A stretch of DNA of 64,000 nucleotides, taken from the NCBI GenBank assembly GCA_024655945.1, contig JANLFK010000011.1, positions 22,021 to 86,020 on the forward strand. The letters run 5' to 3'. The first letter of the stretch is position 1. Each line of letters opens with the position of its first letter. The translations under genes and the position numbers were made by a program. This document shows, one piece after another, positions 28,702-47,329 of the stretch. The notes beneath the pieces were generated by a model. It was not told the DNA's origin. It made no database searches and worked only from the letters and a program-made list of their open reading frames with translations. Source of the stretch: Candidatus Zhuqueibacterota bacterium (GTDB lineage Bacteria; Zhuqueibacterota; Zhuqueibacteria; JANLFK01; Oleimicrobiaceae).

Positions 28702-28764
28702 ATTGCCTGCCGCCCCGCAAAGCGATGGCCGGTCCTTGGCGAGAAGCTGACGAGGAGGAAAGCA

Positions 28765-30180: not shown

Positions 30181-30254
30181 TGACAGGTTCGGCGGGTACC
30201 TTGTGGCGATGCCCTGTCCGAGCGAGGTAGAACAGCAACTGAAGGAGGTGCACA

Positions 30255-32531
30255 ATGTCCATCGCAAAGTTGAAATGGGCAGCCATTGCCGCCTTCGTGG
30301 TAGCGATGGCAGTGCTGTTGGGTGGTGGACTGGCGGCAAAACGGCAGCTTGCCCCCTATCCGGGCACGGTGACCGATGCGGAGGGGAGAGCCCTCTTCAC
30401 ACGGGCGGACATACTGCATGGCCAGGAGGTCTACCAACGCCATGGCCTAATGGACCATGGCAGTGTGTGGGGGCATGGTTCGCAGCGCGGGCCGGAATTC
30501 TCGGCCCTTACCCTACACCTCATCGGCGAGGCCCTGCGCGAGGAGGCAGCATTCCAGGAATTCGGGCGCGCATACGCCGAACTGGGCCAGGCAGAGAGGG
30601 AACTGGTCGACTTGAAGACCAAGTGGGAGGTCAAGGAGAATCGTTACGATCCTCAGGCGGACAGGCTGGTGCTTTCGCCCACCCAGATCAAGGCCTTGGC
30701 GCGCGTGGAGCAGTACTGGGACAAGGTGTTAGGAGAGGGGGAACTTCGCTACGGCTTCCTGCCGCAAACGGTCAAGGACGCCGCCGACCGGCAGCAGGTC
30801 GCCCGCTTTTTCTTCTGGACTGCATGGGTTGCCTCGGTGCAGCGTCCTGGGGAGGACTACTCCTACACCAACAACTGGCCTCCCGATCGCAGCGTGGGCA
30901 ACACTGCCACCACGAACGTCTACCTCTGGACGCTGGGCGGCATCTTCTCCCTGTTCATCGTGTTGGGGCTGTTCATCTATTGGGTGCACCACCACGAGCT
31001 TTGGTACGGCGAGGCGCGTGGCGTGCCCTTAGCGGAGAAACTCATCGACATGCCGCTCACGCCGAGCCAGTTCCGGGCGGCAAAGTTCTTCCTCGTGGTC
31101 ATCCTTCTGTTCCTCCTGCAGACTACGTTCGGCGGACTACTTGCCCACTACACGGTGCATCCGCGCAACTTCTACGTGTCGTGGATCGCCAAGGTGATGC
31201 CGTACAGTTGGGCAAAGAGCTGGCATCTGCAACTGGCCATCTTCTGGATCGCCACCACCTGGGTGGCCTCCGCCATCTACTTGGCGCCCATTCTGGGCGG
31301 GCGCGAGCCGAAGCGTCAAGGTCTCCTGGTGAACATCCTGTTCATCGCAGTGCTCGCCGTTGCCCTGGGTAGCCTGTTTGGCGAGGTGGCAGGCATCAAG
31401 GGGTTGCTGGGCAAGGCGTGGTTCTGGCTCGGACACCAAGGGTGGGAGTATCTTGAGCTTGGCCGGGTGTGGCAGATCCTGCTTTTCGTGAGCCTCATCG
31501 CCTGGCTGCTCATCGTCTACCGCGCGGTGGCTCACCACCTCCGGCTGAAGCACAAGGACGAGTTCACCGCGCTGATCTGGTTCTACCTCCTCAGTGCCAT
31601 CCTGGTGGTGGGCTTTTTCGGCTTTGGCCTCACGTACGGCCGGGGCACGCACCTGACGCTGGCCGACTACTGGCGCTGGTTCGTGGTGCACATCTGGGTG
31701 GAGAGCATTTTCGAGTTTTTCGGCGTGGCTGTAATCTCCACCCTGCTGGTGGCCATGGGCCTGGTGACGGCGAAGGCGGCGCTGCGGGTGGCATACTTTA
31801 CCGCCGCCCTTGTCTTCCTCACCGGGATCATCGGCACTGCCCACCATTACTTCTGGTACGGCGGTCCCTCCTTCTGGCTGGGGTGGGGCGCTGTCTTCTC
31901 CTCCATGGAGCCTGTGCCGCTCTTCGGTCTGGTGGTGCGGGCACTGATGGAGTACAAGGCAGTGAGGGGACAGGGACAGGAGTTCCCCTACCGCTGGCCT
32001 TTCTACTTCCTGGTTGCCTCTTCTTTCTGGAACTTTCTCGGGGCCGGCGTGTTCGGGTTCCTGATCAATCTGCCCATTGTCAACTACTTCGAGCACGGCA
32101 CCTATCTGACGATGAATCACGGCCACACGGCCTTGTTCGGCACTTATGGCATGTTGTCCATCGCGCTGCTGCTTTTCTCGTGGCGTGGCCTGGTGGACAA
32201 GGCGCGATGGAATGATCGCCTGCTTGGGCTGTCCTTCTGGGGTTTGAACGGTGGCCTGCTTTTGATGGCCCTGGCCACCCTGTTGCCGGTGGGTATCATG
32301 CAGGCGTGGACAAGCTTCAAGGAGGGGCTGTGGGTGGCGCGCGACGCCTCCTTCTTCGAACGTGGGCCGGTGGTGTTGCTGGGACAGCTGCGCATGATTC
32401 CCGATTTGCTCATCATTCTCTTCGGGGTGGTTCCACTGGCTTACTTCTTGTTCTCCACGTACCCGAGGCTAAAGCCACCCGCTATCAAGGCCGGGGAATC
32501 GGTGTGGAAGGAGCTGGGAACGGAGCTCTGA
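30255..32531 (+). CDS. norZ: Quinol-dependent nitric oxide reductase (qNOR)
   Basis: 758 aa; GSVWGHGS, SWHLQLAIFW, HIWVES, GTAHHYFW, MEPVPL, NHGHTALFG. Confidence 0.93.
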   Translation: MSIAKLKWAAIAAFVVAMAVLLGGGLAAKRQLAPYPGTVTDAEGRALFTRADILHGQEVYQRHGLMDHGSVWGHGSQRGPEFSALTLHLIGEALREEAAFQEFGRAYAELGQAERELVDLKTKWEVKENRYDPQADRLVLSPTQIKALARVEQYWDKVLGEGELRYGFLPQTVKDAADRQQVARFFFWTAWVASVQRPGEDYSYTNNWPPDRSVGNTATTNVYLWTLGGIFSLFIVLGLFIYWVHHHELWYGEARGVPLAEKLIDMPLTPSQFRAAKFFLVVILLFLLQTTFGGLLAHYTVHPRNFYVSWIAKVMPYSWAKSWHLQLAIFWIATTWVASAIYLAPILGGREPKRQGLLVNILFIAVLAVALGSLFGEVAGIKGLLGKAWFWLGHQGWEYLELGRVWQILLFVSLIAWLLIVYRAVAHHLRLKHKDEFTALIWFYLLSAILVVGFFGFGLTYGRGTHLTLADYWRWFVVHIWVESIFEFFGVAVISTLLVAMGLVTAKAALRVAYFTAALVFLTGIIGTAHHYFWYGGPSFWLGWGAVFSSMEPVPLFGLVVRALMEYKAVRGQGQEFPYRWPFYFLVASSFWNFLGAGVFGFLINLPIVNYFEHGTYLTMNHGHTALFGTYGMLSIALLLFSWRGLVDKARWNDRLLGLSFWGLNGGLLLMALATLLPVGIMQAWTSFKEGLWVARDASFFERGPVVLLGQLRMIPDLLIILFGVVPLAYFLFSTYPRLKPPAIKAGESVWKELGTEL

Positions 32532-32538
32532 GCTGAGG

Positions 32539-32574
32539 CGGGGAGGCCGGCAGCGATGGGCCGCGGCCTCCCCG
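32539..32574 (+). terminator. GC-rich hairpin after qNOR
   Basis: 11-bp stem CGGGGAGGCCG/CGGCCTCCCCG; no U-tract. Confidence 0.35.
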
Positions 32575-32607
32575 TCCGAATCGATCACATCAGAATGTGA
32601 GTGTCAT

Positions 32608-33027
32608 ATGGTGAGACGAGCTGGCAATCGCCTTCTGCGTGAAGAGCGGACCGTTGCGGTCATGATCGGCATCTATTGTGCCGGCGCACACGGCAGCCGG
32701 GTCGGTTTGTGCGCCGAGTGTAAGGAGGTCTTGGCCTATGCTCGGCAGCGCGTGGCGCGATGCCCCTTTGGGGCAGAGAAGCCTACCTGCGCCAAATGCG
32801 TCGTGCACTGCTTTCGCCAGGACATGCGGGCCAGGATCCGTGCGGTGATGCGCTATGCCGGGCCGCGCATGCTTTTTCGCCACCCTGTGCTTGCGTTCTT
32901 CCATCTGTTGGACAGGCGGCGAGGCGCCCCACAACTGCCCCTGGCAGAGGGCGCGAAGGACTCAAAGCTATGCGAGCCACAGGGAGCAGCGGCCAATCGG
33001 TTCACGGTCACGCAAGAAAGTGCTTGA
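32608..33027 (+). CDS. Nitrous oxide-stimulated promoter family protein (YgbA-like)
   Basis: TVAVMIGIYC...LC.EC...YA..R...CPFG..KPTC.KC..HC...M...MRYAGPRML.RHP. Confidence 0.9.
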   Translation: MVRRAGNRLLREERTVAVMIGIYCAGAHGSRVGLCAECKEVLAYARQRVARCPFGAEKPTCAKCVVHCFRQDMRARIRAVMRYAGPRMLFRHPVLAFFHLLDRRRGAPQLPLAEGAKDSKLCEPQGAAANRFTVTQESA

Positions 33028-33052
33028 CAAGCTTGTGGCTTTTGAGTATATT
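33024..33052 (+). promoter_or_regulatory. Sigma70 promoter of the aro/trp/his supra-operon
   Basis: TTGACA-N17-TATATT. Confidence 0.8.
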
Positions 33053-33074
33053 TACCGCAACAAAGGTAACAGGT

Positions 33075-33170
33075 ATGGCTACTTCTCAGGTACAGCGAGA
33101 TCTCTCCCATCACTGGTTTTGGTACTGGTATTATCATATCAGTGGTGGGAGGAATTTGTCCCTGACCTGA
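33075..33170 (+). CDS. Attenuator leader peptide MATSQVQRDLSHHWFWYWYYHISGGRNLSLT
   Basis: AAAGG RBS at 33062-66; ten consecutive His/Trp/Phe/Tyr codons at 33108-33137; lies between the promoter and the terminator. Confidence 0.85.
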   Translation: MATSQVQRDLSHHWFWYWYYHISGGRNLSLT

Positions 33171-33239
33171 AGTACTACCAAGCATAGCAAGAGGCAAATT
33201 CAGCCCACCACAGAGCAGCGTGGTGGGCGTTTTGTTTTT
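33105..33239 (+). promoter_or_regulatory. Transcription attenuator with mutually exclusive 1:2, 2:3 and 3:4 stems
   Basis: Segment 1 TCCCATCACTG (33105-15) pairs with segment 2 CAGTGGTGGGA (33140-50, one G-U); segment 2 GTGGTGGG pairs with segment 3 CCCACCAC (33204-11); segment 3 pairs with segment 4 as the terminator. Confidence 0.85.
33203..33239 (+). terminator. Intrinsic terminator of the leader
   Basis: GCCCACCAC-agagcagc-GTGGTGGGC followed by GTTTTGTTTTT. Confidence 0.85.
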
Positions 33240-33451
33240 CTGGCCATGCCACTTGGAGCGTCGTTGGCAGCCCTTTGCGATTCGCCACGGATAGGCGCGA
33301 GCATCCCGGCTGTAACCTGCCGGTGTCTGCGGCCTGTGCCTTCGTTCGTGGTTTCTGAGAGACTGCTCATGTCCACCGACGCCGCGCGGCGCGGCCGTGG
33401 CGATAGATGGCTGACCAATGGTGACCTGGAGTGCTTCACGGGAGGGATGCA

Positions 33452-33712
33452 GTGGAAGATCCCCTTGTCGCCGCAAGAAAGAGAATCGACGACATCGATA
33501 GTGCGATCATCGCGCTGCTGAACGAGCGGGCGCGCTGCGCCCTCAGCATTGGCGCCATCAAGCGGGAGCGGGGCCTTCCGGCTCGCGACGCAGCGCGGGA
33601 GGCAACCATCTTGGCGCGCGTGGAGAGGGAATCGGGAGGCCCCCTGGCGGGTTCTTCGCTCCGCCGGATTTTTGCAGAAATCGTCGCTGCATGTCGCAGC
33701 TTGCAGGAATAG
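33452..33712 (+). CDS. Chorismate mutase (AroQ class, CM_2)
   Basis: RKRIDDIDSAIIALLNERARCA..IGAIK...D..RE; GGAGG RBS before GTG 33452. Confidence 0.9.
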   Translation: MEDPLVAARKRIDDIDSAIIALLNERARCALSIGAIKRERGLPARDAAREATILARVERESGGPLAGSSLRRIFAEIVAACRSLQE

Positions 33713-33728
33713 CCAAGCAGGAGGTGAC

Positions 33729-34562
33729 GTGGCCCAAGCCAATGACCAGCTGAAGATAGGCGAGTTGCCCCGCCTGACCATTCTTCCCATCGAGGACGTG
33801 CTCTTTCACGAGGAGCCAGATGAGGAGCGAGCGACGCTGCTCACCGCAAAACTCGAGAAGGAGGGGGTGCTGAGGAACCCGCCTATCGTCGCCGATGTCA
33901 ACGGCGCCAGGCGACGCATCCTGCTTGATGGCGCCAATCGGCTGACGGCCCTGCGCACCCTTGGCTTCCGGCATGTGTTGGTGCAGGAAATCGATCTGTT
34001 TGACCCTGGCCTGGTCATTTCCCAATGGCACCACGCCGTGGAGCGCCTGGACAGGTCCTATTTCCAGCAGAGACTGGCCGAGATCGACGGGCTCATGGTC
34101 AGCGAGGAGGCTTTTTCGGAAGGCGGTGCCATCGCCCGCCTGCAGTTTCCCGACCGCTCCCACTTGCACCTCTGTGCCGACGGGGACATCTTCCACCTTG
34201 TCCGCCTGCTTGCACAGGTGACCAGCCTGTATCACGGCTCGGCGTACATGGACCGCGTGAGTTACACCAACCTCGAACACCTGCAGCGCAACTATGCCGA
34301 GTTCAGCGCTCTGGTTTCTTTCCGCACCTTTAGCAAAGATGAAATAGTCGAGCTCACGACGAACAACGCCAAAGTGCCGAGCGGCATCACCCGTGTGGTG
34401 GTGCCCAAGCGGGCTCTGTTCTTCAATCTCCCCCTGGAGGTTTTGGCCAGAGGCGCTAGCACTGCGGAACTGCATCAGTGGCTCCAACGGCATTTGGCCG
34501 ACAAGATCAGGAGCAAGTCTATCCGCTTCTACCAGGAACCGACCTTTATCTTCGACGAGTAG
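33729..34562 (+). CDS. SbnI/SerK-like ParB/Srx-fold free L-serine kinase (putative)
   Basis: [53 protein letters not shown] match the motif order recalled for S. aureus SbnI. Confidence 0.75.
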
Positions 34563-34615
34563 CTGACCCTGGGCGCGCCCAGGAAGGAACTGTACCAAAA
34601 CGTGAGGAGTGCGCA

Positions 34616-35977
34616 ATGGACAGAGTCAAGTACCAGCTGGATGAGAAGGAGGTGCCGCGGCAATGGTACAACATCCAGGCCGATCTCCCGGAGCCGCTGC
34701 CGCCGGTTCTTCATCCGGCAACTGGCAAGCCCGTAGGTCCGGATGACCTGGCACCGCTCTTCCCCGTGGCGCTCATCACGCAGGAGGTGAGCACCGAGCG
34801 CTGGATCGACATTCCCGAAGGGGTGCGGGAGGTGTACGCACTCTGGCGCCCAACGCCGTTGTACAGGGCCAGACGACTGGAGAAAGCATTGGATACGCCG
34901 GCGCGGATCTTCTACAAGTACGAGGGGGTGAGCCCAGCAGGCAGTCACAAGCCGAACACCGCAGTTGCCCAGGCCTACTACAATGCCAAGGAAGGCATCA
35001 AGCGGATTACCACCGAGACAGGTGCTGGACAGTGGGGGAGTGCGCTGGCGCTGGGCGGTATGTTCTTCGGGGTGGAAGTGAAAATCTACATGGTGGCGAT
35101 AAGCTATCGGCAGAAGCCTTATCGCCGCATTCTCATGGAGACATGGGGGGCTACCTGCATCCCCAGTCCCAGCAATGAGACCAAGGCCGGTCGAGCGGTG
35201 CTGGCCCGCGATCCCGACAGCCCGGGCAGCCTGGGCATCGCTATTAGCGAGGCGGTGGAGGAGGCTGTCACCCGCGACGACACCCACTACTCTTTGGGCA
35301 GTGTGCTCAACCACGTGCTGCTGCATCAGACTGTCATCGGCTTGGAAGCAAGACGGCAGATGGAGCTGGCAGGCTACTATCCGGATGTCATCGTCGGTTG
35401 CATCGGCGGGGGCTCCAATGCGGCCGGGCTGTACCTGCCCTTCTTGAAGGACAAGATCGACGGGGCGCAGCCGCACCTCCGGGTGATCAACGTGGAGCCA
35501 GCCAGTTGCCCCACGGTCACCAAGGGCCTGTACGCCTACGACTTTGGCGACAGTGCCGGCCTGACCCCGCTGCTGAAGATGTACACCTTAGGTCACGACT
35601 TTGTGCCGCCGCCAGTACACGCGGGTGGTCTGCGCTACCATGGCATGGCGCCGATTGTGTGCCACCTGCATCGCTTAGGGCTGGTGGAGGCGCGGGCCGT
35701 CAATCAGGTGGACACGTTCCAGGCAGGAGTGACCTTTGCCCGTCATGAGGGAATTGTCCCGGCCCCGGAGAGCAACCACGCCATTCGCGTGGTCATCGAC
35801 GAAGCACTGCGCTGCAAGGAGGAGGGGAAGGCACGCACCATTCTTTTCAACCTTAGCGGCCATGGCCACTTCGACATGGCGGCCTACGAGAGCTTCCTGG
35901 GCGGCAAGTTGCGGGACTATGAGTATCCGGAAGAACAAGTGGCGGAGGCGCTCAAGCGTCTGCCTGTCGTATCCTGA
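34616..35977 (+). CDS. trpB2: TrpB2-type tryptophan synthase beta chain (TrpB-like PLP enzyme)
   Basis: [26 protein letters not shown] (PLP Lys), [33 protein letters not shown]; about 453 aa. Confidence 0.93.
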
Positions 35978-36010
35978 GCGCCTTCGACCGCGCGATCCGG
36001 AGGAAGCCCC

Positions 36011-37036
36011 ATGGTTGTGGTGATGGACGACAACGCCACCCCGGAAGAGATCCAGGCGGTGGAGGACAAGCTGGTTGCCCTTGGTTTTCGGGTGCATCGC
36101 TCTACCGGGGTGAACCGTACCATCCTCGGTGCCATCGGTGACAAGCGAGGGGTAGACACGCGCGTCCTGGAGGTGATGCGTGGAGTGCATGAGGTGCTGC
36201 GCGTCACCGAGCCGTACAAGCTGGCCAGCCGCGCTTTTCACCCGTTGGACACGGTGGTGCGCGTGAGGGACGTTGAGGTGGGGGGCGAGGAGGTGGTGGT
36301 GATGGCCGGTCCCTGCGCGATAGAGAGCGAGGCGCAGATTGACGAGGTGGCCGGCTTGGTCAAGAAGGCTGGGGCGCGCGTGCTCCGTGGTGGGGCCTTC
36401 AAGCCGCGCACCTCGCCTTACAGCTTTCAAGGCCTGGGCGAAGAAGGGTTGCGCTTCCTGCGCAACGCAGCGCAGGCACATGGTCTGGCGGCGGTCTCTG
36501 AGCTCATCGAGGCTCGCGACGTGGAGATGGTGGCCTTGTACGTGGATCTTCTCCAGATTGGCGCGCGCAACATGCAGAATTTTCCCCTGCTCAAAGAGGC
36601 AGGTCGAGCTGGCAAGCCAGTGCTCCTAAAGAGGGGCATGGCGGCCACCATCGAGGAGTGGCTCATGGCAGCCGAGTACATCATGGCCGCTGGCAACTCG
36701 CAGGTCATCCTGTGCGAACGGGGCATTCGCACCTTTGAGACCTACACGCGCAACACCATGGACATTTCGGCAATACCGGTGGTGAAAAAGCGGAGTCATT
36801 TGCCCATCATCGCTGACCCCAGCCACGGCACTGGCCTGCGCGACAAGGTGGCGCCCATGGCCCGCGCGGCGGTGGCGGCCGGAGCCGATGGACTGCTGGT
36901 CGAAGTGCACCCGCGTCCCGACGAGGCACTCTCCGATGGCGCACAGTCCCTGCTGCCGGAGCAGTTTGCGCATCTGATGGAGGAGCTGCGCATCATCGCC
37001 TGGGCCATTGGCAGGAGGGTGGCGGAGCCGCAATGA
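36011..37036 (+). CDS. aroF: DAHP synthase, type I-beta, with N-terminal regulatory domain
   Basis: [49 protein letters not shown]. Confidence 0.95.
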
Positions 37037-38151
37037 GCGACACTACCCAACAAAAGGCGCCCAGGCGCGTGGCGATCATCGGCATCGGGGTGATTGGCGG
37101 CTCGTTGGCCATGGCCGTCAAGCGCAAACTACCAACGGTGGAGATCTTGGCCAGCGATGAGGAGCCGATCGTTGCTCTGGGGAGAGAACTTGGCGCCATC
37201 GACCGAGGGTTCGCCAAGGAAGAGGTGGAGCGATGCGTGGCACAGGCCGACGTCGTGGTGTTGGCGACGCCCATTGCGGAGATCCTGCGCCTCTTGCCAA
37301 GGGTGGCAGCGGCAGTCCGACCTGGCACCATAGTCACCGATGTCGGAAGCAGCAAGCGCACGATAGTACAGGCAGCCGAAGCCGTGTTCCCTTCTGGCTG
37401 CTACTTTGTGGGCGGTCACCCGATGGCTGGCTCGGAACGCCAAGGCCTGCGCGGAGCCGATCCCCTCATGTTCGACAACGCAGTGTGGGTGCTCACGCCG
37501 GCTGCCAAGACCCCTGCGCGTGTGGTGCGTTCCCTGGGCAGCCTCTTAGAGCAGGTTGGGGCCAAGGTGCTCATTGTCAGCCCGCTGTTGCACGACCGGG
37601 TAGCGGCGGCGGTTAGCCACCTGCCCCAGCTTCTGGCCGTGGCGCTGATGAATATGGTCGCCCGGCATCAATCCGACATGCCCCACCTGCTGAAGTTGGC
37701 GGCAGGCGGATTCCGGGACATGACGCGCATCGCCTCCAGTCCCTACCGCATGTGGGCGGACGTGCTTGCCACCAACGTCGAGCAGATCGTGCCCTTTGTG
37801 GACGAGTACATCGCCGAGCTGCAGCGCCTCCGCAGCAGGCTCCTGGCCGGGGATTTGGCAGGAGAGTTCGACAGTGCTGCCCGCAGCAGGCTGTCCATTC
37901 CGCGCGACACAAAGGGCTTTCTGAAGCCCCACTATGACCTCATCGTCCAGGTGGAAGATCGGCCCGGGGTGATTGCGGCGATGGCCGGGGCACTGGCCGC
38001 CGAGGAGATCAACATCAAGGACATCGAGGTGCTGAAGGTGCGGGAGGGCGATGCCGGCAGCATCCGCATGGCCTTCGAGTCGGAGGCCTGTCGCACGCGC
38101 GCCGCGACGCTCATTGGCCGCCTGGGTTACCGGACGCGCAGGGTGGAGTGA
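37033..38151 (+). CDS. tyrA: Prephenate dehydrogenase with C-terminal ACT domain
   Basis: [52 protein letters not shown]. Confidence 0.93.
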
Positions 38152-38155: not shown

Positions 38156-39436
38156 ATGGACCGGGAGATCAGAGGAGGCGGTGCGCTGCGCGGCACGGTG
38201 AGGGTGCAAGGGGACAAGTCGATTTCCCATCGGGCCCTGATTTGTGGCGCCATAGCCGAGGGCCGGACGCACATCCGCAACCTTTGCCCGGGCAAGGACG
38301 TGCAGAGCACGATAGCGTGTCTGCAAGCCTTAGGAGTGCCGATCCGGGTGTGCGGGAGCGAGGCCAGCGTGGACGGCGTGGGCCTGCGCGGTTTGCGGCC
38401 GCCGCCCGCCGTACTCGACGCGGGCAATTCCGGGACGACCATGCGACTCCTTGCCGGCGTTCTGGCCGGTCAGCAGTTTGCCGCCTCCCTCACCGGGGAT
38501 GAGTCACTCCGGCGGCGGCCCATGGCGCGCGTCATCGAGCCCTTGGCCATGATGGGCGCGCGCATCGAATCTATGCCCGGAGGCTTCGCACCGCTGCGCA
38601 TTCAGGGCGGCAAGCTCACGGCCATCTCCTATGCAATGCCGGTTGCCAGCGCTCAAGTCAAATCGGCGGTGCTGTTGGCCGGCCTCTTTGCCGAAGGCAC
38701 AACCGAGGTCGTGGAGCCAGCGCCCACGCGTGACCACACCGAGCGCATGCTGCCCCACTTCGGCGTGGCAGTAAGCGTGGACCGCAGAGCGGTGGCCGTA
38801 CGTGGGCCGGCACGGCTGCAGGGCGCCAGCGTGGAGGTACCGGGGGACATATCTTCGGCAGCCCTTCTCCTGGCAGCGGCCGCGGTGGTGGAAGGGTCCG
38901 CTTTGCGGGTCGAAAAAGTAGGCGTCAATCCGACCCGCAGCGGCCTGCTCGAGGTTTTGAGGAAGATGGGCGCGCGGATAGTTCTCGAAGAACAGGCGGA
39001 GGCCTGGGAGCCGGTGGCCGATCTCCTTGTAGAGGCAGGTTCGCTGCGTGCCGTGGAAATCGACGGTGCGCTTGTCCCGCGCCTGATTGACGAGCTGCCG
39101 GTGCTGGCGGTGGTGGCCACCCAGGCCGAAGGGGAGACTCGCATCCAAGGCGCAAGAGAGTTGCGCGTGAAGGAGAGTGACCGCATCCGGGCTGTGGCCG
39201 CCAATCTCAGGGCCATGGGCGCCGAGGTGCAGGAGCTCGAAGACGGGCTCGTCATCCCCGGACCTCAGAAGCTGAAGGGGGCCGCGGTGGACAGCTTCGG
39301 CGACCACCGCATCGCCATGAGCTTTGCGGTTGCCGGGTTGCTCGCCCACGGCCCGACTGTGATCCGCCACGCCGAGTGCGTGGATATCTCCTTTCCTGGC
39401 TTCTTCGACTTGCTCGAGGAGCTGCGCCGTGGCTGA
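38156..39436 (+). CDS. aroA: EPSP synthase
   Basis: GDKSISHRA, GNSGTTMR, SAQVKSA, RDHTERML, IDELP, LRVKESDRI, DHRIAM. Confidence 0.96.
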   Translation: MDREIRGGGALRGTVRVQGDKSISHRALICGAIAEGRTHIRNLCPGKDVQSTIACLQALGVPIRVCGSEASVDGVGLRGLRPPPAVLDAGNSGTTMRLLAGVLAGQQFAASLTGDESLRRRPMARVIEPLAMMGARIESMPGGFAPLRIQGGKLTAISYAMPVASAQVKSAVLLAGLFAEGTTEVVEPAPTRDHTERMLPHFGVAVSVDRRAVAVRGPARLQGASVEVPGDISSAALLLAAAAVVEGSALRVEKVGVNPTRSGLLEVLRKMGARIVLEEQAEAWEPVADLLVEAGSLRAVEIDGALVPRLIDELPVLAVVATQAEGETRIQGARELRVKESDRIRAVAANLRAMGAEVQELEDGLVIPGPQKLKGAAVDSFGDHRIAMSFAVAGLLAHGPTVIRHAECVDISFPGFFDLLEELRRG

Positions 39437-40307
39437 CGCGCACACCCAGACGCTCGGGCTCATCGGCGATCCTGTGGACCATTCCCTTTCGCCTCTACTG
39501 CATGGGAACTTGATTCACGTCCTTGGCGTGAACTGTTGCTACCATGCCTTCCGGGTGCGCCGCGAGGAGCTGGCCGAGGCTGTGGCCGGGCTAAGGGCGC
39601 TCGGCGTGAGGGGGGTCAATGTCACCATCCCGCACAAAGAGGCGGTCTTGCCGCTGCTGGACGAGGTTTCCCCAGAGGCCCGGGCAGTGGGGGCCGTGAA
39701 TGTCATCGTCAACCAGCAGGGACGACTGCTTGGGTACAATTCGGACACTGCCGGGGTGGAACTGGCCCTGAGGCGGCGTGGGGTGGACGTGCGTGGCTGC
39801 AAGGTCGTGGTACTGGGCGCGGGGGGCGCCGCGCGCGCGGTGGTGTGGGTGCTGGCGCAGATGGGGGCGGCAGCTGTGCACATCCACAGCCGCACACCGA
39901 CCCGAGGAGAACGACTTGCCAGCGAATTGGCCGAATCGTGCGGCAAGACTGAGCTGACCGTGTTCCCGTGGGAGGAAGCTGCTCTCGCCCGGAGTCTGGA
40001 GGGTGCGGCGCTCCTGGTCAACGCGACGCCCTGCGGCATGTGGCCCCGGCATCACGAATCGCCCGTGACGGGCAATTTCCTCGGCAAGGGCATAGTGGTG
40101 TTCGACTTAGTTTACAATCCCCTGCACACTCGCTTGCTGCGGGAGGCGGCAGGACGCGGGGCGCAGACCATACCCGGCCTGGACATGCTCATCTTCCAAG
40201 CGGTGGAGGCGATGGCACTCTGGACCGGCCGCCGTCCGGCAAAGGAGGGCGAATTCATGACCGAGATGCGCACATTTCTCAGCAAGGAACTGCAGGGTTA
40301 TGCGTAG
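39429..40307 (+). CDS. aroE: Shikimate dehydrogenase
   Basis: HSLSP, NVTIPHKE, GAVN, NSD, GAGGAARA, MLIFQA. Confidence 0.95.
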   Translation: MADAHTQTLGLIGDPVDHSLSPLLHGNLIHVLGVNCCYHAFRVRREELAEAVAGLRALGVRGVNVTIPHKEAVLPLLDEVSPEARAVGAVNVIVNQQGRLLGYNSDTAGVELALRRRGVDVRGCKVVVLGAGGAARAVVWVLAQMGAAAVHIHSRTPTRGERLASELAESCGKTELTVFPWEEAALARSLEGAALLVNATPCGMWPRHHESPVTGNFLGKGIVVFDLVYNPLHTRLLREAAGRGAQTIPGLDMLIFQAVEAMALWTGRRPAKEGEFMTEMRTFLSKELQGYA

Positions 40308-41490
40308 ACTGCGGTACTTCACTGCAGGCGAGTCGCACGGCAAGGCACTGGTAGGCATTCTGGAGGGGATGCCCGCCCAGGTGCCGGTGCGCAGGGAGGA
40401 GATTGACCGCCAATTGCGTCGTCGGCAAGCGGGCTACGGGAGAGGCGGTCGCATGGCCATCGAACAGGACCGCGTGGAGATTGTTGCCGGCGTGCGCGCA
40501 GGGTACACCACCGGCGCTCCGGTAGCACTCATCGTAGCCAATCGGGACTGGCAGAATTGGCAGGAGGTCATGGCTGTAGAAGCATGTGGCCAACGACCTG
40601 AGCCGGTGACGGTGCCGCGCCCGGGTCACGCGGACCTTGCCGGTGCCCTCAAGTACGGGCATGCCGACCTGCGCGACGTCATCGAGCGGGCCAGCGCCCG
40701 CGAGACCGCTATGCGGGTAGCGTTGGGAGCGATCGCCGGCGAGCTTCTGGAACAAGTGGCTATTGGCGTGGTCAGCCACGTCACGGCCATTGCTGGTCAC
40801 TGGAGTCGCTGGCAAGCGACGGATGAGACGCCGGCAGCTGCTGGTCGCCGTGCTCTGCAGTGGTGCCGCAGAGTGTGGGCGCAGGCGGACAAATCGCCGG
40901 TGCGCTGCCTGGATCCTGAGGACGAGAAGCGCATGATCGCAGCAATCGATGAGGCACGCGAGGCGGGCGACTCCGTCGGTGGCGTGCTCGAAGTGGTGGC
41001 TGTGGGCGTGCCCCCGGGACTCGGCAGCTATGTGCACTGGGACCGCCGCCTGGACGGGCGCTTGGCCATGGCAGTGATGTCGATTCCCGGCATCAAGAGT
41101 GTTGAGATCGGCCTGGGGTCGAAAGCCGCAGACCTGCGCGGTTCGCAAGTCCACGATGAGATCAGCCCCCGGCCGCGGCGCAGGCTAGCACGGGCCAGCA
41201 ACCGGGCAGGCGGCATCGAGGGCGGCGTGAGCAACGGCCAGCCCATCGTGCTGCGCGCTGCCATGAAACCGATACCGACGCTTGCCCGCCCCTTGCGTTC
41301 TGTGGACTTGCGCGATGGCAAGCCCGAGGCGGCTCTTCGTGAGCGGGCAGATGTGTGTGCGGTCCCGGCGGCTGCGGTGGTCGCAGAGGCCATGGTCAAA
41401 CTGGTGCTTGCCGATGCCATCTTGGAAAAGTTCGGCGGCGACTCACTGCCTGAACTGCTTGCAGCCTATGAGCGCGCCACGGTCCGGTAA
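40300..41490 (+). CDS. aroC: Chorismate synthase
   Basis: TAGESHG, RPGHAD, ERASARETA, SNRAGGIEGG, MKPIPT, RADVC. Confidence 0.96.
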   Translation: MRRLRYFTAGESHGKALVGILEGMPAQVPVRREEIDRQLRRRQAGYGRGGRMAIEQDRVEIVAGVRAGYTTGAPVALIVANRDWQNWQEVMAVEACGQRPEPVTVPRPGHADLAGALKYGHADLRDVIERASARETAMRVALGAIAGELLEQVAIGVVSHVTAIAGHWSRWQATDETPAAAGRRALQWCRRVWAQADKSPVRCLDPEDEKRMIAAIDEAREAGDSVGGVLEVVAVGVPPGLGSYVHWDRRLDGRLAMAVMSIPGIKSVEIGLGSKAADLRGSQVHDEISPRPRRRLARASNRAGGIEGGVSNGQPIVLRAAMKPIPTLARPLRSVDLRDGKPEAALRERADVCAVPAAAVVAEAMVKLVLADAILEKFGGDSLPELLAAYERATVR

Positions 41491-42013
41491 CCTCTACCTC
41501 ATCGGCTTCATGGGCGCAGGCAAGAGCAGCCTCGGCCGAGCCCTTGCCGCACGCCTGGGCATGACCTTTGTCGACACCGACCAGCTCGTCGAGCAACTGA
41601 CCGGACGCCGCATCGCCGACATTTTCGCTCAAGAAGGTGAAGGTCATTTTCGGCAGCTCGAGCGGCAGGTGATCCAAATCGTGAGCAGCCGTAGCGGCCA
41701 GGTGGCTGCAGTCGGCGGGGGCGCGGTCATGGATAGCGAAAACTGGCGACGGCTGCAAGGGAGTGGGACCACCGTGTACCTCGAATGCACCGCCTCACTC
41801 TTGGCCCGCCGACTTGCCGAGGACAGAGTGCGTCCGCTGCTACGGGGACTTGAGGGAGAGGAGCGTTCCCGGGCCATTGCAGGCCTGTTGGCGGAGCGGG
41901 AGCCGCGTTACCGCCAGGCGCAGGTGGTTCTGCGTGTGCACGAAAAGAGCACGACCGAAGCCCTGGTGAGTCGACTGCTGGTGGTGTTGGGGAAACAGGA
42001 TGGAGACGATTGA
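41468..42013 (+). CDS. aroK: Shikimate kinase
   Basis: LIGFMGAGKS P-loop, DTD, GEGHFR..E, GGG, RPLL. Confidence 0.94.
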   Translation: MSAPRSGNLYLIGFMGAGKSSLGRALAARLGMTFVDTDQLVEQLTGRRIADIFAQEGEGHFRQLERQVIQIVSSRSGQVAAVGGGAVMDSENWRRLQGSGTTVYLECTASLLARRLAEDRVRPLLRGLEGEERSRAIAGLLAEREPRYRQAQVVLRVHEKSTTEALVSRLLVVLGKQDGDD

Positions 42014-43094
42014 GGTCAAAGTAGGCACCGGCTCCTACCCGGTGCACGTCGAAATGGGCCTGCTCGCACGGGTGGGGGAACTGCTCGCCCCTTGCCTGGT
42101 GGGCCGGCGTGTTGCGCTGGTCACCGATAGCCACGTGGCTCCCCTCTACGGCCCGCAAGTGAGCCCGAGTCTCCGGGCAGCCGGGGTGGAAGTGACCCAG
42201 TACGCCGTGCCTGCGGGTGAGGCGTCCAAGTCGCTGCGCTCCTGCCAGTGGCTGTGGGGAAAGCTTATAGAGGACCGGCTCGATCGCAGTGCCACGGTGG
42301 TCGCGCTTGGTGGAGGGGTGGTTGGCGACCTGGCAGGATTTGTGGCATCAACGTACCTGCGTGGGGTGCGCTTGGTGCAGATTGCCACCACCCTCATTGC
42401 ACAAGTAGATAGCGCATTGGGCGGCAAGACGGGGATCAATCACCCGGCCGCAAAGAACGTCATCGGGACCTTCTATCATCCGTGCTGCGTGCTCATCGAC
42501 CCGACTGTGCTCGCGACTTTGAAGAGGCGCGATCTGCGTGCGGGATTTGCTGAAGTGCTCAAATATGCCATCGTCGCCCACCCAGCGCTGTTCCAGGTGT
42601 TGCAGGAGAAGTTGGAGGCCTTGCTGAGTTTCCAGGACGAGAAAGCTCTTGCCTGGGTGATCAGTGAATGTTGCCAGGTGAAAGCGCGCATCGTCAGCAG
42701 AGACGAGCGCGAGCAGGGGATGCGGCGGGTGCTCAACTTTGGCCATACCATCGGGCATGCCCTGGAGGCCGCCACCAGGTTCAGGGTGCTCCGTCACGGC
42801 GAGGCGGTGCTCGTGGGCATGCGTGGGGCAGCTTGGCTGTCCGCGCAAAGGGGGCTTTTAGCGGATGAGCAGTTCCGAGCGGTCATCAAGCTCCTGAATC
42901 GGCTGCCGTGCTCAGTGGATCTGTCGCGCGTAGCCCCTTCCGCAGTGATGGAATTTGTCGCTGCCGACAAGAAGCATTATGCCCGGGCGCTGCACTTTGT
43001 GGGTTTGCGGGGCATCGGCTGGCCGCAGGTCATTACCGACGTGACGGAGCAGGAACTCATGGCCGCCATCGCGTATGCCTTGGGCAGGAGGTGA
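42000..43094 (+). CDS. aroB: 3-dehydroquinate synthase
   Basis: GEASKS, GGGVVGD, QVDSALGGKTGIN, LNFGHTIGHALE, HGEAV, DKK. Confidence 0.96.
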   Translation: METIEVKVGTGSYPVHVEMGLLARVGELLAPCLVGRRVALVTDSHVAPLYGPQVSPSLRAAGVEVTQYAVPAGEASKSLRSCQWLWGKLIEDRLDRSATVVALGGGVVGDLAGFVASTYLRGVRLVQIATTLIAQVDSALGGKTGINHPAAKNVIGTFYHPCCVLIDPTVLATLKRRDLRAGFAEVLKYAIVAHPALFQVLQEKLEALLSFQDEKALAWVISECCQVKARIVSRDEREQGMRRVLNFGHTIGHALEAATRFRVLRHGEAVLVGMRGAAWLSAQRGLLADEQFRAVIKLLNRLPCSVDLSRVAPSAVMEFVAADKKHYARALHFVGLRGIGWPQVITDVTEQELMAAIAYALGRR

Positions 43095-43097
43095 CGG

Positions 43098-43553
43098 ATG
43101 AGGGTCCTCGTCCTCCACGGGCCGAACCTGAATCTGCTCGGCGAGCGTGAGCCGCACATCTACGGCACCATGACGCTGCGTGGGCTCAACGCACTCATCA
43201 GGAGGCACGCACGCACCCTCGGTGTGCGGGTCAAGATCGCGCAATCCAACCACGAAGGCCGGCTCATCGACCTCATTCAGCGGCGGCGAAAATGGGCAGA
43301 CGGCATTCTGATCAACCCCGGCGCTCTGACTCATTACAGCTACGCGCTGCGGGACGCCCTCGCAGCGGTGGCGCTGCCGGTAGTTGAGGTGCACCTGTCG
43401 GACATCCACGCGCGAGAGGAGTTCCGACGCGTCTCGGTGATTGCGCCGGTGTGTGTTGCGCAAATTGTCGGGTTGGGAGCCGACGGTTACCTGGGCGGCT
43501 TGGAGGAGCTGGTACGGGTCATCACCGGAAGAGGAAAGCATGCGCAAGATTAG
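43098..43553 (+). CDS. aroQ: Type II 3-dehydroquinate dehydratase
   Basis: [35 protein letters not shown]. Confidence 0.96.
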
Positions 43554-44394
43554 GCTGGTCATTCCCAAAGGTCGCATCCACAATGGCGTGGTGCAGCTTC
43601 TCACCGACGCGGGCTTTGTCTTGCGGGAAAACGACCGGCAGTACGTGCCGGCCGTCAACGACCCGGAGCTGCAGGTGAAGATTATGAAGCCGCAAAACAT
43701 CGCCCAACTTGTCGAGCTCGGCTCCCACGATTGCGGCTTCACCGGCCTGGATTGGATCGTGGAGACCGGGGCGCAGGTGGAAGAACTCCTGGACCTGCGC
43801 CTGGATCCGGTGAGCATTGTCGCGGCGGTGCCGGCGCAGCTCAAGACCGCAGAGCTGCGCAGCCGCCGTCTGGTCGTTGCCTCCGAGTATGAGCGCATTT
43901 CCCGTCAGTTCCTCAGCGAGCAGGGGTACGACTTTATTCTCCTCCGCACCTACGGTGCCACCGAGGCATTTCCGCCGGAAGACGCCGACATGATTATCGA
44001 TAACACCGCCACCGGCCAGACGCTCCGAGAACACGGGTTGCGCATCGTGGCCACGGTGATGGAGTCTTCGACCCGGTTCATCGCCAATGCCCGCGTCATG
44101 CAAGACGAGCGCACGCGGGAAAAGATCGAAGAGTTGGTGATGCTCTTTACGGCGGTGCTCAACGCGCGCGAGAGGGTGATGTTGGAGATGAATGTGCCGG
44201 CGGAAAGGCTGGAGGCGGTGGTGCGCCTGCTTCCCTGCATGCGAGCGCCGACAATCTCGCAGCTGTACGGAGAGCAGGGGTACGCAGTCAAGGCAGCCGT
44301 GCGCCGCTCTGAGATTATCCGCCTCGTCCCTCTGCTCAAGAAGATGGGTGCCACGGACATTCTCGAGTACGAGTTCAAGAAGGTCATCATATGA
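43540..44394 (+). CDS. hisG: ATP phosphoribosyltransferase (long form)
   Basis: [40 protein letters not shown]-terminal domain. Confidence 0.93.
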
Positions 44395-45446
44395 GCCTCA
44401 TCAAACAGCGGGTGCGGGAGCTGTCGCGCTACGAGGTGCCGCAAGATGCGCAGATGGTTAAGCTCAACCAGAATGAGTTCCCCCGCGACGTGCCGGACCA
44501 ATTCAAGAGGGAAATTCTGGCGCGTTTGGCCGCTGCCTCGTGGCAGCGCTACCCGGATGGAGAGGCAGGGGCGTTGGTGACAGCCATCGCGGCCTATGCC
44601 GGGGTGCCCGCCGAGTGCGTGCTGGTGGGGAACGCCTCAAACGAGCTCATCCAAACGGTGATTTCCGCAACGTGTGAGAGTGGCGACACCATCGTCACCG
44701 TCACTCCTGGCTTTGCCGTTTACAGTCGAGTGGCCCGCATCTTGGGAGCATGTGTACGGGAAGTACCACTTCGGGCGGACTTTAGTTGCGACCCTGAGGC
44801 GCTGGTGGCTGCTGCTCATGGGGCGCGCCTGGTCATCTTCGCCACACCGAACAATCCCACCGGCACCTGGATGGCCGTTTCCGACATCGAGGAGCTGGTT
44901 GCACGGGTGGACTGCCTGGTCTGCGTGGATGAGGCCTACTTCGAGTTCCACGGTGAGACCGCCTTGCCCCTGCTGCGCAGCTACAGCAACCTCGTTCTGT
45001 TGCGCACATTCTCCAAAGCCTTGCGGCTGGCAGGCGCGCGGCTTGGCTATCTTCTGGGGCCGCCGCAAGTGGTGGCCGAGCTGGCAAAGGCGCGGCTGCC
45101 CTTCTCGGTGGGTATCCTGCAGCAGATCGCCGGCGAGGTGATGCTGGCGCACCGCAAGTTGCTGGAAAAGGAGATCCAGGAAGTGGTGTGCCAGAGGGAA
45201 GAGCTCCTGGCGGTGCTGCCGAGCATTTCTGGGGTCCAGGCAGTGCCCTCGCGCGCGAACTTTGTGCTCTTCCGCCACCAGGCCGTGCCCGCGGCGACGC
45301 TTTTCTCTGCCTTACGCCGGCGCGGCGTCTTGGTGCGATCCTTCGGGGACGCCTTGAGCGACTGGCTGCGCGTCACCGTTGGCACTCCTGCCGAGAACCA
45401 GGCGTTCTTGGCAGCCCTGCGGGCTTCGCTTGTGGAGTTGGCATGA
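44391..45446 (+). CDS. hisC: Histidinol-phosphate aminotransferase
   Basis: LNQNE, RYPD, PNNPTG, DEAYFEF, RTFSKALRLAGARLGY, RVTVG. Confidence 0.94.
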   Translation: MSLIKQRVRELSRYEVPQDAQMVKLNQNEFPRDVPDQFKREILARLAAASWQRYPDGEAGALVTAIAAYAGVPAECVLVGNASNELIQTVISATCESGDTIVTVTPGFAVYSRVARILGACVREVPLRADFSCDPEALVAAAHGARLVIFATPNNPTGTWMAVSDIEELVARVDCLVCVDEAYFEFHGETALPLLRSYSNLVLLRTFSKALRLAGARLGYLLGPPQVVAELAKARLPFSVGILQQIAGEVMLAHRKLLEKEIQEVVCQREELLAVLPSISGVQAVPSRANFVLFRHQAVPAATLFSALRRRGVLVRSFGDALSDWLRVTVGTPAENQAFLAALRASLVELA

Positions 45447-46123
45447 AGGCCGTGCTCTTCGATATGGACGGGGTGCTCGTGGAGGTGTCCGGTTCCTATC
45501 GGCGGGCCATCGCGGCGACGGTGGAGCACTTTTCGGGAATGGCCATTTCGCCTGCGCAGATCCAGGCGTACAAGGACGCCGGAGGCTGCAACAACGACTG
45601 GGAGCTGACGCGCCGAGTCTTGCACGACCAGGGCGTGGATGTCCCTCTGCAAGAGATCGTCAGCGTGTTCCAGGAATTCTACCTGGGGCGCAACTTTGAC
45701 GGGCTGATCACCAATGAGCAGTGGCTCTTGCGTGCGGAGGTGGCCATGCGGTTGGCTGGTCGATACGCGCTGGGCGTGGTGACTGGCAGACCCCGCCGCG
45801 AAGCAGCCTGGACACTGCAGCGCGCCGGCATGCAGCACCTCTTTGGCGCAGTGGTGACCATGGATGACCTGCCCTGGGACCGACAGAAGCCCCACCCGGA
45901 TGGCTTGTACCTTGCCTTGGCCAAGTTGGGTGCACAAGAGGGTTGGTACGTGGGCGACACCGTCGACGACATCGTTGCGGCCAGAGCGGCGAAGGTGGTG
46001 CCCATCGCCGTGCTCGCCAACCAGCTGGGAGAAGAAGGCGCAGCCTGCATGGCCCTGCTGCGCGGCCACGGCGCGGCAGCAGTCATCCCGGATGTGAACT
46101 GCATAGAGGAGGTGCTCAGGTGA
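45443..46123 (+). CDS. HAD-superfamily hydrolase, probable histidinol-phosphate phosphatase
   Basis: FDMDGVL, NNDW, VTGRP, KPHPD, GDTVDD; located between hisC and monofunctional hisB. Confidence 0.75.
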   Translation: MKAVLFDMDGVLVEVSGSYRRAIAATVEHFSGMAISPAQIQAYKDAGGCNNDWELTRRVLHDQGVDVPLQEIVSVFQEFYLGRNFDGLITNEQWLLRAEVAMRLAGRYALGVVTGRPRREAAWTLQRAGMQHLFGAVVTMDDLPWDRQKPHPDGLYLALAKLGAQEGWYVGDTVDDIVAARAAKVVPIAVLANQLGEEGAACMALLRGHGAAAVIPDVNCIEEVLR

Positions 46124-46725
46124 AGCGCAGCGCCCGCGCGGAGCGGCGCAGCCGCGAGACTGAGGTTATCGTCGAACTTAGCATCGACGGCAAGGGACAG
46201 GCGCACGTCACAACCCCCATCGGCTTGCTCACGCACATGCTCGAGACCTTTGCCAAGCACGGGCTCTTTGACCTCACCCTCAGCGCCAGCGGCGACCTGC
46301 ACGTGGACCAGCACCACCTGCTCGAGGACTGCGGGCTGGTATTGGGCAAGGCCTTTGCCCAGGCTTTGGGCGACAAGCGCGGCATCAACCGCGCCGGCTA
46401 CTTCGTCTACCCCATGGACGAGGCACTGGCCGTGGTGGCCGTGGACATCGGCGGCCGCCCTTACCTGCAGTACGATGTCCACTTCAGTCGCCAATTTTGC
46501 GGCGACCTCGACTCGGACCTGCTGGAAGACTTTTTCTATGCCTTCGCCGTGCAATTGGGAGGCAACGTGGTGGTACGCATGCCCTATGGCCGCAGCGACC
46601 ACCACAAGATGGAGGCCATCTTCAAGGCCTTCGCCAAGGCCCTCGCCATGGCTTGCCAGGTCAATCCTCGCGCCGCTGGTGAGGTCCCCAGCACAAAAGG
46701 ACTGATCGATGACCGGGATAGTTGA
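46120..46725 (+). CDS. hisB: Imidazoleglycerol-phosphate dehydratase
   Basis: HML, DQHHLLED, PMDEAL, SDHHKMEAIFKAF, PSTKG. Confidence 0.95.
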   Translation: MKRSARAERRSRETEVIVELSIDGKGQAHVTTPIGLLTHMLETFAKHGLFDLTLSASGDLHVDQHHLLEDCGLVLGKAFAQALGDKRGINRAGYFVYPMDEALAVVAVDIGGRPYLQYDVHFSRQFCGDLDSDLLEDFFYAFAVQLGGNVVVRMPYGRSDHHKMEAIFKAFAKALAMACQVNPRAAGEVPSTKGLIDDRDS

Positions 46726-47329
46726 CTATGGCGCCGGCAACCTGCGCTCGGTGAGCGAAGCCCTATCCTACCTGGGCGTGGAGCACCGGCTTGTTCGTGG
46801 CGCGCAGGAATTGGAGCTCGCGGACAGGTTGATCTTACCCGGCGTGGGCTCGTTCGGGCACGCGGTTGAGCACCTCCATGCGGCGGGCCTCTTTGGCGCC
46901 CTGCGGGCCTGGCTGGACGCTGGCCGCCCCTACTTAGGCATCTGTTTAGGTCTGCAGCTGCTGCTGGAGGGGAGCGAGGAGTCGCCCGGCGCAGCTGGCT
47001 TTGGCTTTCTCAGAGGCACATGCCGCCGTTTCCAAGGACGGCGCGTGCCGCAGATCGGCTGGAACAACGTGGAGTTCAAGGCCGACTGCCCTCTGTTCGC
47101 CGGGCTTGTCCCTGGTGAGTATTTCTACTTTGTGCACAGCTACTCGGCCGTGCCTGAGGACACGCTCAAGGTCGTTGGGTGGACCGAGTACGGCATCCGC
47201 TACGCCTCCGCGGTGGGCGTCGGCCAGGTGTGGGCGGTCCAGTTCCACCCCGAAAAGAGCGGTCGAGCCGGCCTGACTGTCCTCAAGAACTGGCTCGAGC
47301 GCTGTGCCGGCGCCGGCCACGGCGGCTGA
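46709..47329 (+). CDS. hisH: Imidazole glycerol phosphate synthase, glutaminase subunit
   Basis: DYGAGNL, PGVG, GICLGLQ, VPQIGWN, YFVHSY, QFHPEKS. Confidence 0.95.
   Translation: MTGIVDYGAGNLRSVSEALSYLGVEHRLVRGAQELELADRLILPGVGSFGHAVEHLHAAGLFGALRAWLDAGRPYLGICLGLQLLLEGSEESPGAAGFGFLRGTCRRFQGRRVPQIGWNNVEFKADCPLFAGLVPGEYFYFVHSYSAVPEDTLKVVGWTEYGIRYASAVGVGQVWAVQFHPEKSGRAGLTVLKNWLERCAGAGHGG

Follow-up and report, generated by a model that had tools for sequence, protein, structure and literature searches.

A putative leader-peptide attenuator, probably recoded from a Trp-only family, upstream of an aromatic and histidine supra-operon in a Candidatus Zhuqueibacterota bacterium

The DNA analyzed here (the window) is a stretch of 64,000 nt of contig JANLFK010000011.1 from a Candidatus Zhuqueibacterota bacterium. 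It contains an element at positions 33024-33239 that precedes an operon of about 14 kb with genes of aromatic amino acid and histidine biosynthesis. Positions refer to the whole 64-kb window and to its plus strand, and related loci are labelled L001-L094. The explanation that we favor is that the element is a ribosome-mediated attenuator of this operon, that it was recoded from a Trp-only attenuator, and that it senses Trp and probably Tyr and His. The parts of this explanation differ in strength. As judged from sequence analysis, the element is very likely a leader-peptide transcription attenuator, and it can be said with good confidence that it reads charged tRNA-Trp. A response to at least one more amino acid, Tyr and/or His, is probable. 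Sensing of all four amino acids, Trp, Tyr, His and Phe, is possible but rather doubtful.

The central feature is a 31-codon open reading frame (ORF) at positions 33075-33170, which encodes MATSQVQRDLSHHWFWYWYYHISGGRNLSLT*. The ATG is at 33075 and the TGA stop codon at 33168-33170, and the frame, stop and core are kept in the clade of relatives described below. The ORF has a run of ten consecutive control codons, CAT CAC TGG TTT TGG TAC TGG TAT TAT CAT (HHWFWYWYYH, positions 33108-33137), with 3 Trp, 3 Tyr, 3 His and 1 Phe. Both the ORF and the run had been described in an original prediction made from the sequence, and the run has no counterpart elsewhere in the window. When all of the window is scanned in six frames, 10-residue segments with at least eight W/H/F/Y residues occur only in the leader ORF, and the number of segments with ten out of ten expected by chance is 4.5e-6. 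A Shine-Dalgarno-like AAAGG is read at 33062-33066, with the ATG 8 nt downstream. The predicted promoter is also present: a -35 hexamer TTGACA (33024-33029) and a -10 hexamer TATATT (33047-33052) are separated by a 17-nt spacer, and together they match the sigma-70 consensus at 11/12 positions. This is the top-scoring promoter within 2.5 kb. The GC fraction is 0.44 at the leader region compared with about 0.62 around it.

Secondary structure modeling of the leader shows a set of alternative pairings. Segment 1, the 5' arm of the anti-antiterminator (33104-33117), spans the codons L-S-H-H-W and pairs with segment 2 (33138-33151) in a stem of 14 bp, counting G·U pairs, that overlaps the control codons. 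An 11-bp stem between 33105-15 and 33140-50 had been claimed; such a stem is found, but it is longer at both ends. The core of segment 2 (GTGGTGGG, 33142-33149) can pair instead with CCCACCAC at 33204-33211 in segment 3. This antiterminator lies where it was predicted and is extended by a 9-bp inner helix, whose 5' arm is at 33152-33160 and 3' arm at 33193-33201. Segment 3 (GCCCACCAC, 33203-33211) is at the same time the 5' arm of an intrinsic terminator. The 3' arm is segment 4 (GTGGTGGGC, 33220-33228), directly followed by the U-tract GTTTTGTTTTT (33229-33239), in agreement with the prediction. The terminator stem has 9 bp, of which 7 are G-C, and is situated between the leader ORF and the first structural gene. 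The 2:3 antiterminator and the 3:4 terminator are mutually exclusive. In isolation the delta G values are -27.2 kcal/mol for the 1:2 hairpin, -30.5 kcal/mol for the 2:3 hairpin and -19.3 kcal/mol for the terminator. The fold of positions 33059-33245, which had been proposed as a check, is -73.4 kcal/mol with z = -5.6, and none of 200 shuffled sequences is equally stable.

To assess which codons could act as control codons, the RNA 3' of a stalled ribosome was folded, with the ribosome edge placed at +10, +12 or +14 from the A site and the transcript cut off ahead of segment 4. The antiterminator core is predicted in full, with all 8 pairs, when the A site is on H, H, W, F, W, Y, W or Y (codons 33108-33131). 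With the A site at the next Tyr codon (33132-33134), 7, 5 or 3 pairs are predicted for the three edges, which is partly permissive. At the last His codon (33135-33137) there are 4, 2 or 0 pairs, which is not permissive, and from the Ile codon onward (from 33138) there are none. The original prediction had cautioned that a ribosome stalled on the distal Tyr and His codons might cover segment 2. The constrained folding bears this out, in that the last Tyr and the last His lie where the stalled ribosome would occlude segment 2, and sensitivity is expected to be graded by position. In every lineage of the clade the permissive zone holds at least one His, three Trp, one Phe and at least one Tyr codon. 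Masked folding of the whole transcript was also tried, but it paired segment 1 across a ribosome at codon 33129, which is sterically implausible, and it was superseded by the 3'-only folding.

The following mechanism is proposed; that the ORF is translated, that ribosomes stall at each type of codon and that polymerase reads through are inferred. A single transcript of about 14 kb would start at the promoter (33024-33052) and extend through the chorismate mutase (CM), serK-like, trpB2, DAHP synthase, tyrA, aroAECKBQ and hisG-C-(HAD)-B-H genes. When the ribosome reaches the ORF stop codon, segment 2 would be covered or re-paired with segment 1, and the terminator (33203-33228) and U-tract would form. 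A ribosome stalled with its A site within 33108-33131 (H H W F W Y W Y) would occupy segment 1 and leave segment 2 free. The free segment 2 would then form the long 2:3 antiterminator (-30.5 kcal/mol) ahead of the synthesis of segment 4, and RNA polymerase would read through. As to its origin, the element would have begun as a Trp-only attenuator of a serK-like–trpB2 gene pair, as is seen in many genomes of candidate division KSB1 and Gemmatimonadota. The pair would later have become embedded in a CM/aro/tyrA/his supra-operon, and His and Tyr codons would have taken the place of two Trp codons and of the codons after the run.

By the homologues of its CM and SerK-like proteins, the window falls among metagenome-assembled genomes of candidate division KSB1 / 'Ca. 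Oleimicrobiaceae', some of them labelled Calditrichota. The clade with the same operon comprises eight lineages, including the window; the relatives are L001, L002, L004, L083-85, L086, L089/90 and L091. The order norB–ygbA–leader–CM–serK–trpB2–aro–tyrA–his is found in all of these relatives, to the limit of each contig. Conservation of the H/W/F/Y run upstream of CM, which had been suggested as a test, is observed in all eight lineages with minor variants. The run is HHWFWYWYYH in the window, L002, L004 and L086, HQWFWCWYYH in L001, HHWFWYWYHH in L083-85, HHWFWYWYYY in L089/90 (which also has a synonymous CAC to CAT change) and HHWFWRWYYH in L091. The first His, the W, F, W and W residues and the Tyr at 33129 are unchanged in all eight, and the distal positions show Y/H interchanges.

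The sequence around the run is also constrained. The -35 hexamer is near-invariant (one T for C, in L004) and the -10 hexamer invariant in seven clade sequences, and the spacer between them varies. The 5' untranslated region and the N-terminus of the leader diverge within the clade but the ORF frame is conserved, and relatives with a diverged 5' untranslated region have GGAG at an equivalent distance from the start codon. The leader core shows 0-3 differences per 63 nt, whereas 4-fold sites of the adjacent trpB2 gene are 47-66% identical; this implies strong purifying selection on the leader. In the arm at 33193-33201, L004, L083, L086 and L089 have an A to G change that retains pairing as G·U. 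Two Logan-assembled sequences each have a single change that breaks one pair, in the terminator arm of L002 (GTGGCGGGC, position ~1530) and in segment 2 of L091 (AGT to AGG, position ~9540). These may be real polymorphisms or assembly errors.

The window leader is related to a larger family of leaders that have Trp codons only. The loci of this family are L005-L044, L056, L066, L075, L081, L088 and L092-L094 (e.g., L025, positions 1833-1974). In these loci the serK-like–trpB2 pair is not accompanied by aro or his genes, and a short ORF with WWW or WWWW is located 100-250 nt upstream of it in 35 of the 39 loci that have enough upstream DNA. The corresponding rates in controls are 3.3% for random windows of the same loci and 1/30 for SerK homologues without trpB2. 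The clade has an intrinsic terminator, and a scan of 42 family members detected one in 40, the exceptions being L002 and L038. The spacing between W run and terminator is constant, at 148-168 nt in the family, and the window has 157 nt. In the Trp-only leaders a segment inside the ORF that encodes ..SSGR.. repeats the terminator 3' arm and covaries with its 5' arm. Pairs of segment 2 and terminator arm in different lineages are GCAGCGGG/CCCGCTGC, CATAGTGGG/CCCACTATG and TTTAGTGGG/CCCACTAA, compared with GTGGTGGG/CCCACCAC in the window clade.

This covariation was quantified in an alignment of 35 family sequences, and covarying stems had been among the checks suggested with the original prediction. 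The terminator is paired in 95.7% of alignment cells, with 35 double-change cells, and none of 500 shuffles scored as high. RNAalifold recovered only the terminator from these sequences, and the antiterminator was for this reason tested by an explicit count of pairs. The 2:3 antiterminator is 81% paired, with 31 double-change cells and again 0/500 shuffles as high; slid controls give 35-56% here, and 31-56% when the terminator and antiterminator tests are taken together. A candidate for a small hairpin in the interval from the W run to segment 2 is 70.6% paired, with slid controls of up to 57%. A segment 1 upstream of the W run finds no support across the family, with a mean longest helix of 6.5 nt compared with 6.0 nt in shuffles.

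A hidden Markov model (HMM) was built from the 35 Trp-only leaders with no window-clade sequence included. When searched with nhmmer, it matches window positions 33127-33233 with E = 9.3e-8 over HMM positions 38-146 of 148, and this is the sole significant match in the 64 kb. In both the family and the window, segment 2 is inside the ORF, encodes ..SG(G)R.. and copies the terminator 3' arm. The two differ in other respects. The Trp run is cut in the window to three interleaved codons and falls outside the family pattern of 3-5 Trp codons that are contiguous or have one interruption. The window has a strong 14-bp 1:2 stem that is not general in the family. In its operon an inserted CM gene separates the leader from the serK-like gene and a further 13 genes are added downstream, with serK-like–trpB2 remaining within the regulated operon. 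The window leader is a derived member of the family and not a typical one; by sequence homology it is assigned as a descendant of a Trp-only attenuator.

These data also bear on the proposal that there is no attenuator here at all, and that the ORF encodes a small aromatic-rich protein, or that the region is a terminated small RNA or belongs to the 3' end of the ygbA-like gene that precedes it, the pairings being fortuitous. A point in its favor is that no Rfam family matches. At the gathering score there are no Rfam matches across the whole window, and permissive searches (E <= 10) of the leader region 32950-33500 and of the Trp-only relative L025 give no leader or T-box family. The matches that do appear at E <= 10 for the leader and the Trp-only relative (miRNA, viral pseudoknots) were judged to be due to chance. 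The leader has its own conserved promoter, the peptides of the family have only the W run and the segment-2-encoding stretch in common, segments 2 and 3 covary, the position is fixed on the same strand 90-350 nt upstream of biosynthetic genes, and the fold is unusually stable (the z-score given above). Fortuitous pairing in a region of other function is therefore highly improbable. The conservation in eight lineages, the homology to a covarying Trp-leader family and the stall geometry strongly support the predicted leader-peptide attenuation of a supra-operon of about 14 kb.

The question of what the attenuator senses is less straightforward. Trp sensing is well supported, since none of the three W codons varies and the element has a Trp-only ancestry. 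For the other amino acids, the window leader was compared in an alignment with its closest Trp-only relatives, L088 (SWWFWWWQKYSHSGRR) and L007. It has CAC in place of one TGG, TAC in place of another TGG, TAT TAT in place of CAG/CGG (Gln/Arg) and AAA/AAC (Lys/Asn), and CAT in place of TAC. On balance, the window clade gained His and Tyr codons and lost two Trp codons. The codon types gained match the amino-acid-specific branches that were added to the operon, tyrA and hisG-H; Phe has no dedicated gene there and shows no gain. The Phe codon of the window run is also found in L088 and L018, which have serK–trpB2 only; given its presence in these close Trp-only relatives, it may predate the operon fusion. 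It is probable from the alignment that a Trp-codon run was partly rewritten to Tyr and His codons in the one clade where tyrA and his genes joined the operon. A possible evolutionary intermediate is the lineage of L087 (positions 1-2813), which has the arrangement CM–serK–trpB2 and a SerK 60% identical to that of the window; its contig ends inside CM. A metagenome scan with the L087 SerK gave no closer relatives, only further Trp-only leaders.

Several observations weigh against the reading of Tyr and His codons as sensors, and against parts of the mechanism itself. The minimum free energy structure of the full-length transcript always contains the terminator; as the terminator wins thermodynamically, read-through must be kinetic, as in E. 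coli trp. The proximal CAT CAC codons are exactly dictated by the pairing of CAUCAC with GUGGUG of segment 2. At least six Trp-only leaders also have a His codon directly before the W run (HWWW), and the DNA fetched for them shows neither aro nor his genes. L001 has HQ in place of HH and C at the first Tyr, where L091 has R. The operon lacks pheA, and two Trp-only leaders, L088 and L018, also have a Phe codon in the W run (WFW). In L007 and L088 a Y-x-H motif already precedes SGR and encodes segment 2. Third codon positions are frozen in the clade except for the one CAC to CAT change, so that constraint at the RNA level and at the codon level are inseparable. The leaders with mixed runs are all from one clade and thus represent a single evolutionary event. 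Lone Phe or Tyr codons may give little stalling. For the Phe-Tyr-Phe leader aroR of C. glutamicum, the account in PMC11802643 (citing Neshat 2014) attributes the effect to Phe limitation only.

Much of this would be expected if the attenuator were functional but read Trp only, with the His, Tyr and Phe codons tolerated and kept as segment 1 and as the A/U-rich loop of the 1:2 stem. The ancestral family reads Trp alone, the HH codons can be ascribed to 1:2 pairing, the HWWW, WFW and Y-x-H patterns already exist in Trp-only leaders, H to Q, Y to C and Y to R variants occur, and the near absence of synonymous variation beside saturated 4-fold sites points to constraint on the RNA. The choice of residues argues otherwise. 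All seven non-Trp residues of the run belong to {H, Y, F}, which have a combined frequency of 8.3% in the operon proteins, giving p^7 of about 3e-8, and A/U-rich codons for Ile, Asn, Lys or Leu would suit the loop equally well. Other lineages interrupt the W run with C, R, A, V, L or P but never with Y or H. Tyr and His codons were gained together with tyrA and his genes, and loss of two of five Trp codons would yield a weaker Trp sensor with no benefit. A Trp-only sensor is for these reasons considered less likely.

Sensing of Tyr and His is favored over it because the clade in which their codons arose is exactly the one whose operon acquired tyrA and his genes, and because at least one codon of each is invariant in the permissive zone. 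The case for Phe is weak, as there is a single codon, shared with the Trp-only L088 and L018, in an operon without pheA; a contribution of Phe is doubtful and may be weak or none. The four-amino-acid OR gate of the original prediction is thus retained in part: it is well supported for Trp, plausible for Tyr and His, and doubtful for Phe.

The composition of the run could also reflect a sensor of translation rate in general, in which slow, rare codons and low-abundance tRNAs report amino acid or tRNA stress without specificity. Five of the seven His, Tyr and Phe codons at 33108-33137 are U-ending minor codons (CAT, TAT, TTT), which have 23-31% usage in the operon genes, and Trp, His and Tyr are among the rarest residues of these genes at 1.5-2.5% each. 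This codon bias could represent selection for slow decoding, or merely the A/U-rich loop. One tRNA reads both the U- and C-ending codons of each of His, Tyr and Phe, so specific charging would still dominate, and the family-wide Trp runs before a Trp-synthesis gene pair favor amino acid specificity. A non-specific rate sensor is accordingly very unlikely. A binding site for a TRAP-like protein was also considered and is unlikely, in that the window leader has only three UGG triplets and the UGG runs of the family are contiguous inside a translated ORF.

The operon downstream of the proposed attenuator spans positions 33452-47329, with all genes on the same strand and with gaps of 0-54 nt or overlaps. 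The first structural gene (33452..33712) encodes a chorismate mutase of the CM_2 type, for which a GTG start was chosen on the basis of a GGGAGGG Shine-Dalgarno sequence. It is followed by a gene for a ParB-fold, SbnI/SerK-like putative L-serine kinase (33729..34562; NCBIfam SbnI 3.6e-21 and SerK 6.9e-9, PDB SbnI 5uje 3e-13) and by the gene for TrpB2, a TrpB-like pyridoxal phosphate enzyme (34616..35977). Next are a DAHP synthase with an N-terminal ferredoxin-like domain (36011..37036) and tyrA, a prephenate dehydrogenase with an ACT domain (37033..38151). The genes aroA, aroE, aroC, aroK, aroB and aroQ (38156..43553) overlap or abut each other, and hisG, which overlaps the end of aroQ, begins a group with hisC, a HAD phosphatase gene (TIGR01548), hisB and hisH (43540..47329).

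The predicted downstream content of aro, tyrA, CM, trpB2 and his genes is therefore as claimed, but there is no pheA, and the his portion is limited to the five genes listed. Genes pheA, trpEGDCFA and hisA/F/I/D are found neither in the operon nor among the other large ORFs scanned. From their absence in the operon it follows that they are encoded and regulated elsewhere, and that the attenuator would govern only a part of each pathway. The TIGR01548 HAD hydrolase (45443-46123, between hisC and hisB) is a candidate histidinol-phosphate phosphatase, standing in for the phosphatase domain that is absent from the monofunctional hisB.

The serK-like–trpB2 pair is kept in about 45 loci across KSB1, Gemmatimonadota and other groups. 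SbnI and SerK are L-serine kinases that produce O-phosphoserine, and TrpB2 enzymes reportedly favor O-phospho-L-serine. This suggests that the serK-like and TrpB2 proteins form a dedicated serine-kinase/TrpB2 module for indole salvage. The linkage offers genomic support for use of O-phosphoserine by TrpB2 in vivo.

The spacer between the terminator and CM (window positions 33240-33451) differs in length among relatives: L001 and L002 have approximately 210-220 nt, like the window, and L004, L083 and L086 have 87, 103 and 351 nt. The possibility that this pre-CM spacer of about 220 nt contains a second regulatory element was considered and is unlikely, as there is no Rfam match and the spacer length in the clade ranges over 87-351 nt. 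Upstream of the leader, positions 27502-33027 contain a nitric-oxide-related cluster with a hemerythrin/DUF438/DUF1858 protein, a norB-like quinol nitric oxide reductase and a ygbA-like gene. This cluster is syntenic with the operon in every relative with a long contig (L001, L004, L083, L086, L089 and L091).

The window leader has all the sequence-testable features of attenuators of the trpL/hisL/pheL/thrL type. The mechanism is already known; the phylum, the parent family and the mixture of His with aromatic codons are new. Like E. coli trpL in the Yanofsky model, the window leader has a promoter-proximal short ORF with Trp codons, 1:2, 2:3 and 3:4 segments, and an intrinsic terminator ahead of the first gene, thermodynamically favored but kinetically pre-empted. 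It differs from trpL in that it has no sequence or covariance-model similarity to it, is from the phylum KSB1, and has Trp codons interleaved with His, Tyr and Phe. In place of trpEDCBA, its operon has the genes of the common aromatic pathway together with CM, tyrA, serK-like–trpB2 and his genes.

Leaders that respond to more than one amino acid are known. E. coli thrL (Thr and Ile) and ilvL/ivbL (Ile, Leu and Val) each use one leader for two or three amino acids, as an OR gate on stalling. Their amino acids are from one branched pathway, whereas the window leader joins His to the aromatics of a separate pathway. The aromatic supra-operon of B. subtilis, aroFBH-trpEDCFBA-hisC-tyrA-aroE, has a 5' attenuator under control of TRAP, which binds (G/U)AG repeats and responds to Trp only. 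This is the closest analogue of the operon, with common aromatic, Trp, Tyr and his-named genes behind a 5' attenuator, but it has hisC and not hisG/B/H, and no leader peptide. The closest functional precedent for a mixed aromatic leader, according to PMC11802643 (citing Neshat 2014), is C. glutamicum aroR, a Phe-Tyr-Phe leader peptide before the aroF (DAHP-synthase) operon, where an attenuator of the common pathway has codons for two aromatic amino acids. As given in that account, aroR is without Trp or His codons, and it is unrelated to the window leader in sequence and phylum.

The original prediction had noted that no leader was known to combine His with all three aromatic amino acids, and none with His and aromatic control codons was found in the literature. 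There is likewise no paper found on a TrpB2/serine-kinase leader, and the family is absent from Rfam. A 2010 survey noted leader peptides in Proteobacteria, Actinobacteria and a few Firmicutes and essentially nowhere else (PMC2965389). The present family is sizeable and extends leader-peptide attenuation to KSB1 and Gemmatimonadota. To our knowledge, nearly all characterized leader-peptide attenuators are from Proteobacteria and Actinobacteria, and they read one amino acid or those of one branched pathway.

Comparison of the Trp-only family with the window clade offers a before-and-after view of an attenuator whose specificity appears to have been rewritten by a few codon changes as its operon gained genes. 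The element may also be of interest to synthetic biology as a compact natural RNA switch with multiple inputs. Cross-pathway coupling of His and aromatic amino acids has long been known physiologically in Bacillus. If the His codons are functional, the leader would provide a cis-acting link between histidine and aromatic amino acid supply. If sensing of four tRNAs is true, it would be the first case of a leader that joins histidine to the aromatic amino acids, the products of two unrelated pathways, and would represent a natural, datable reprogramming of an attenuator by codon substitution to fit the new content of its operon.

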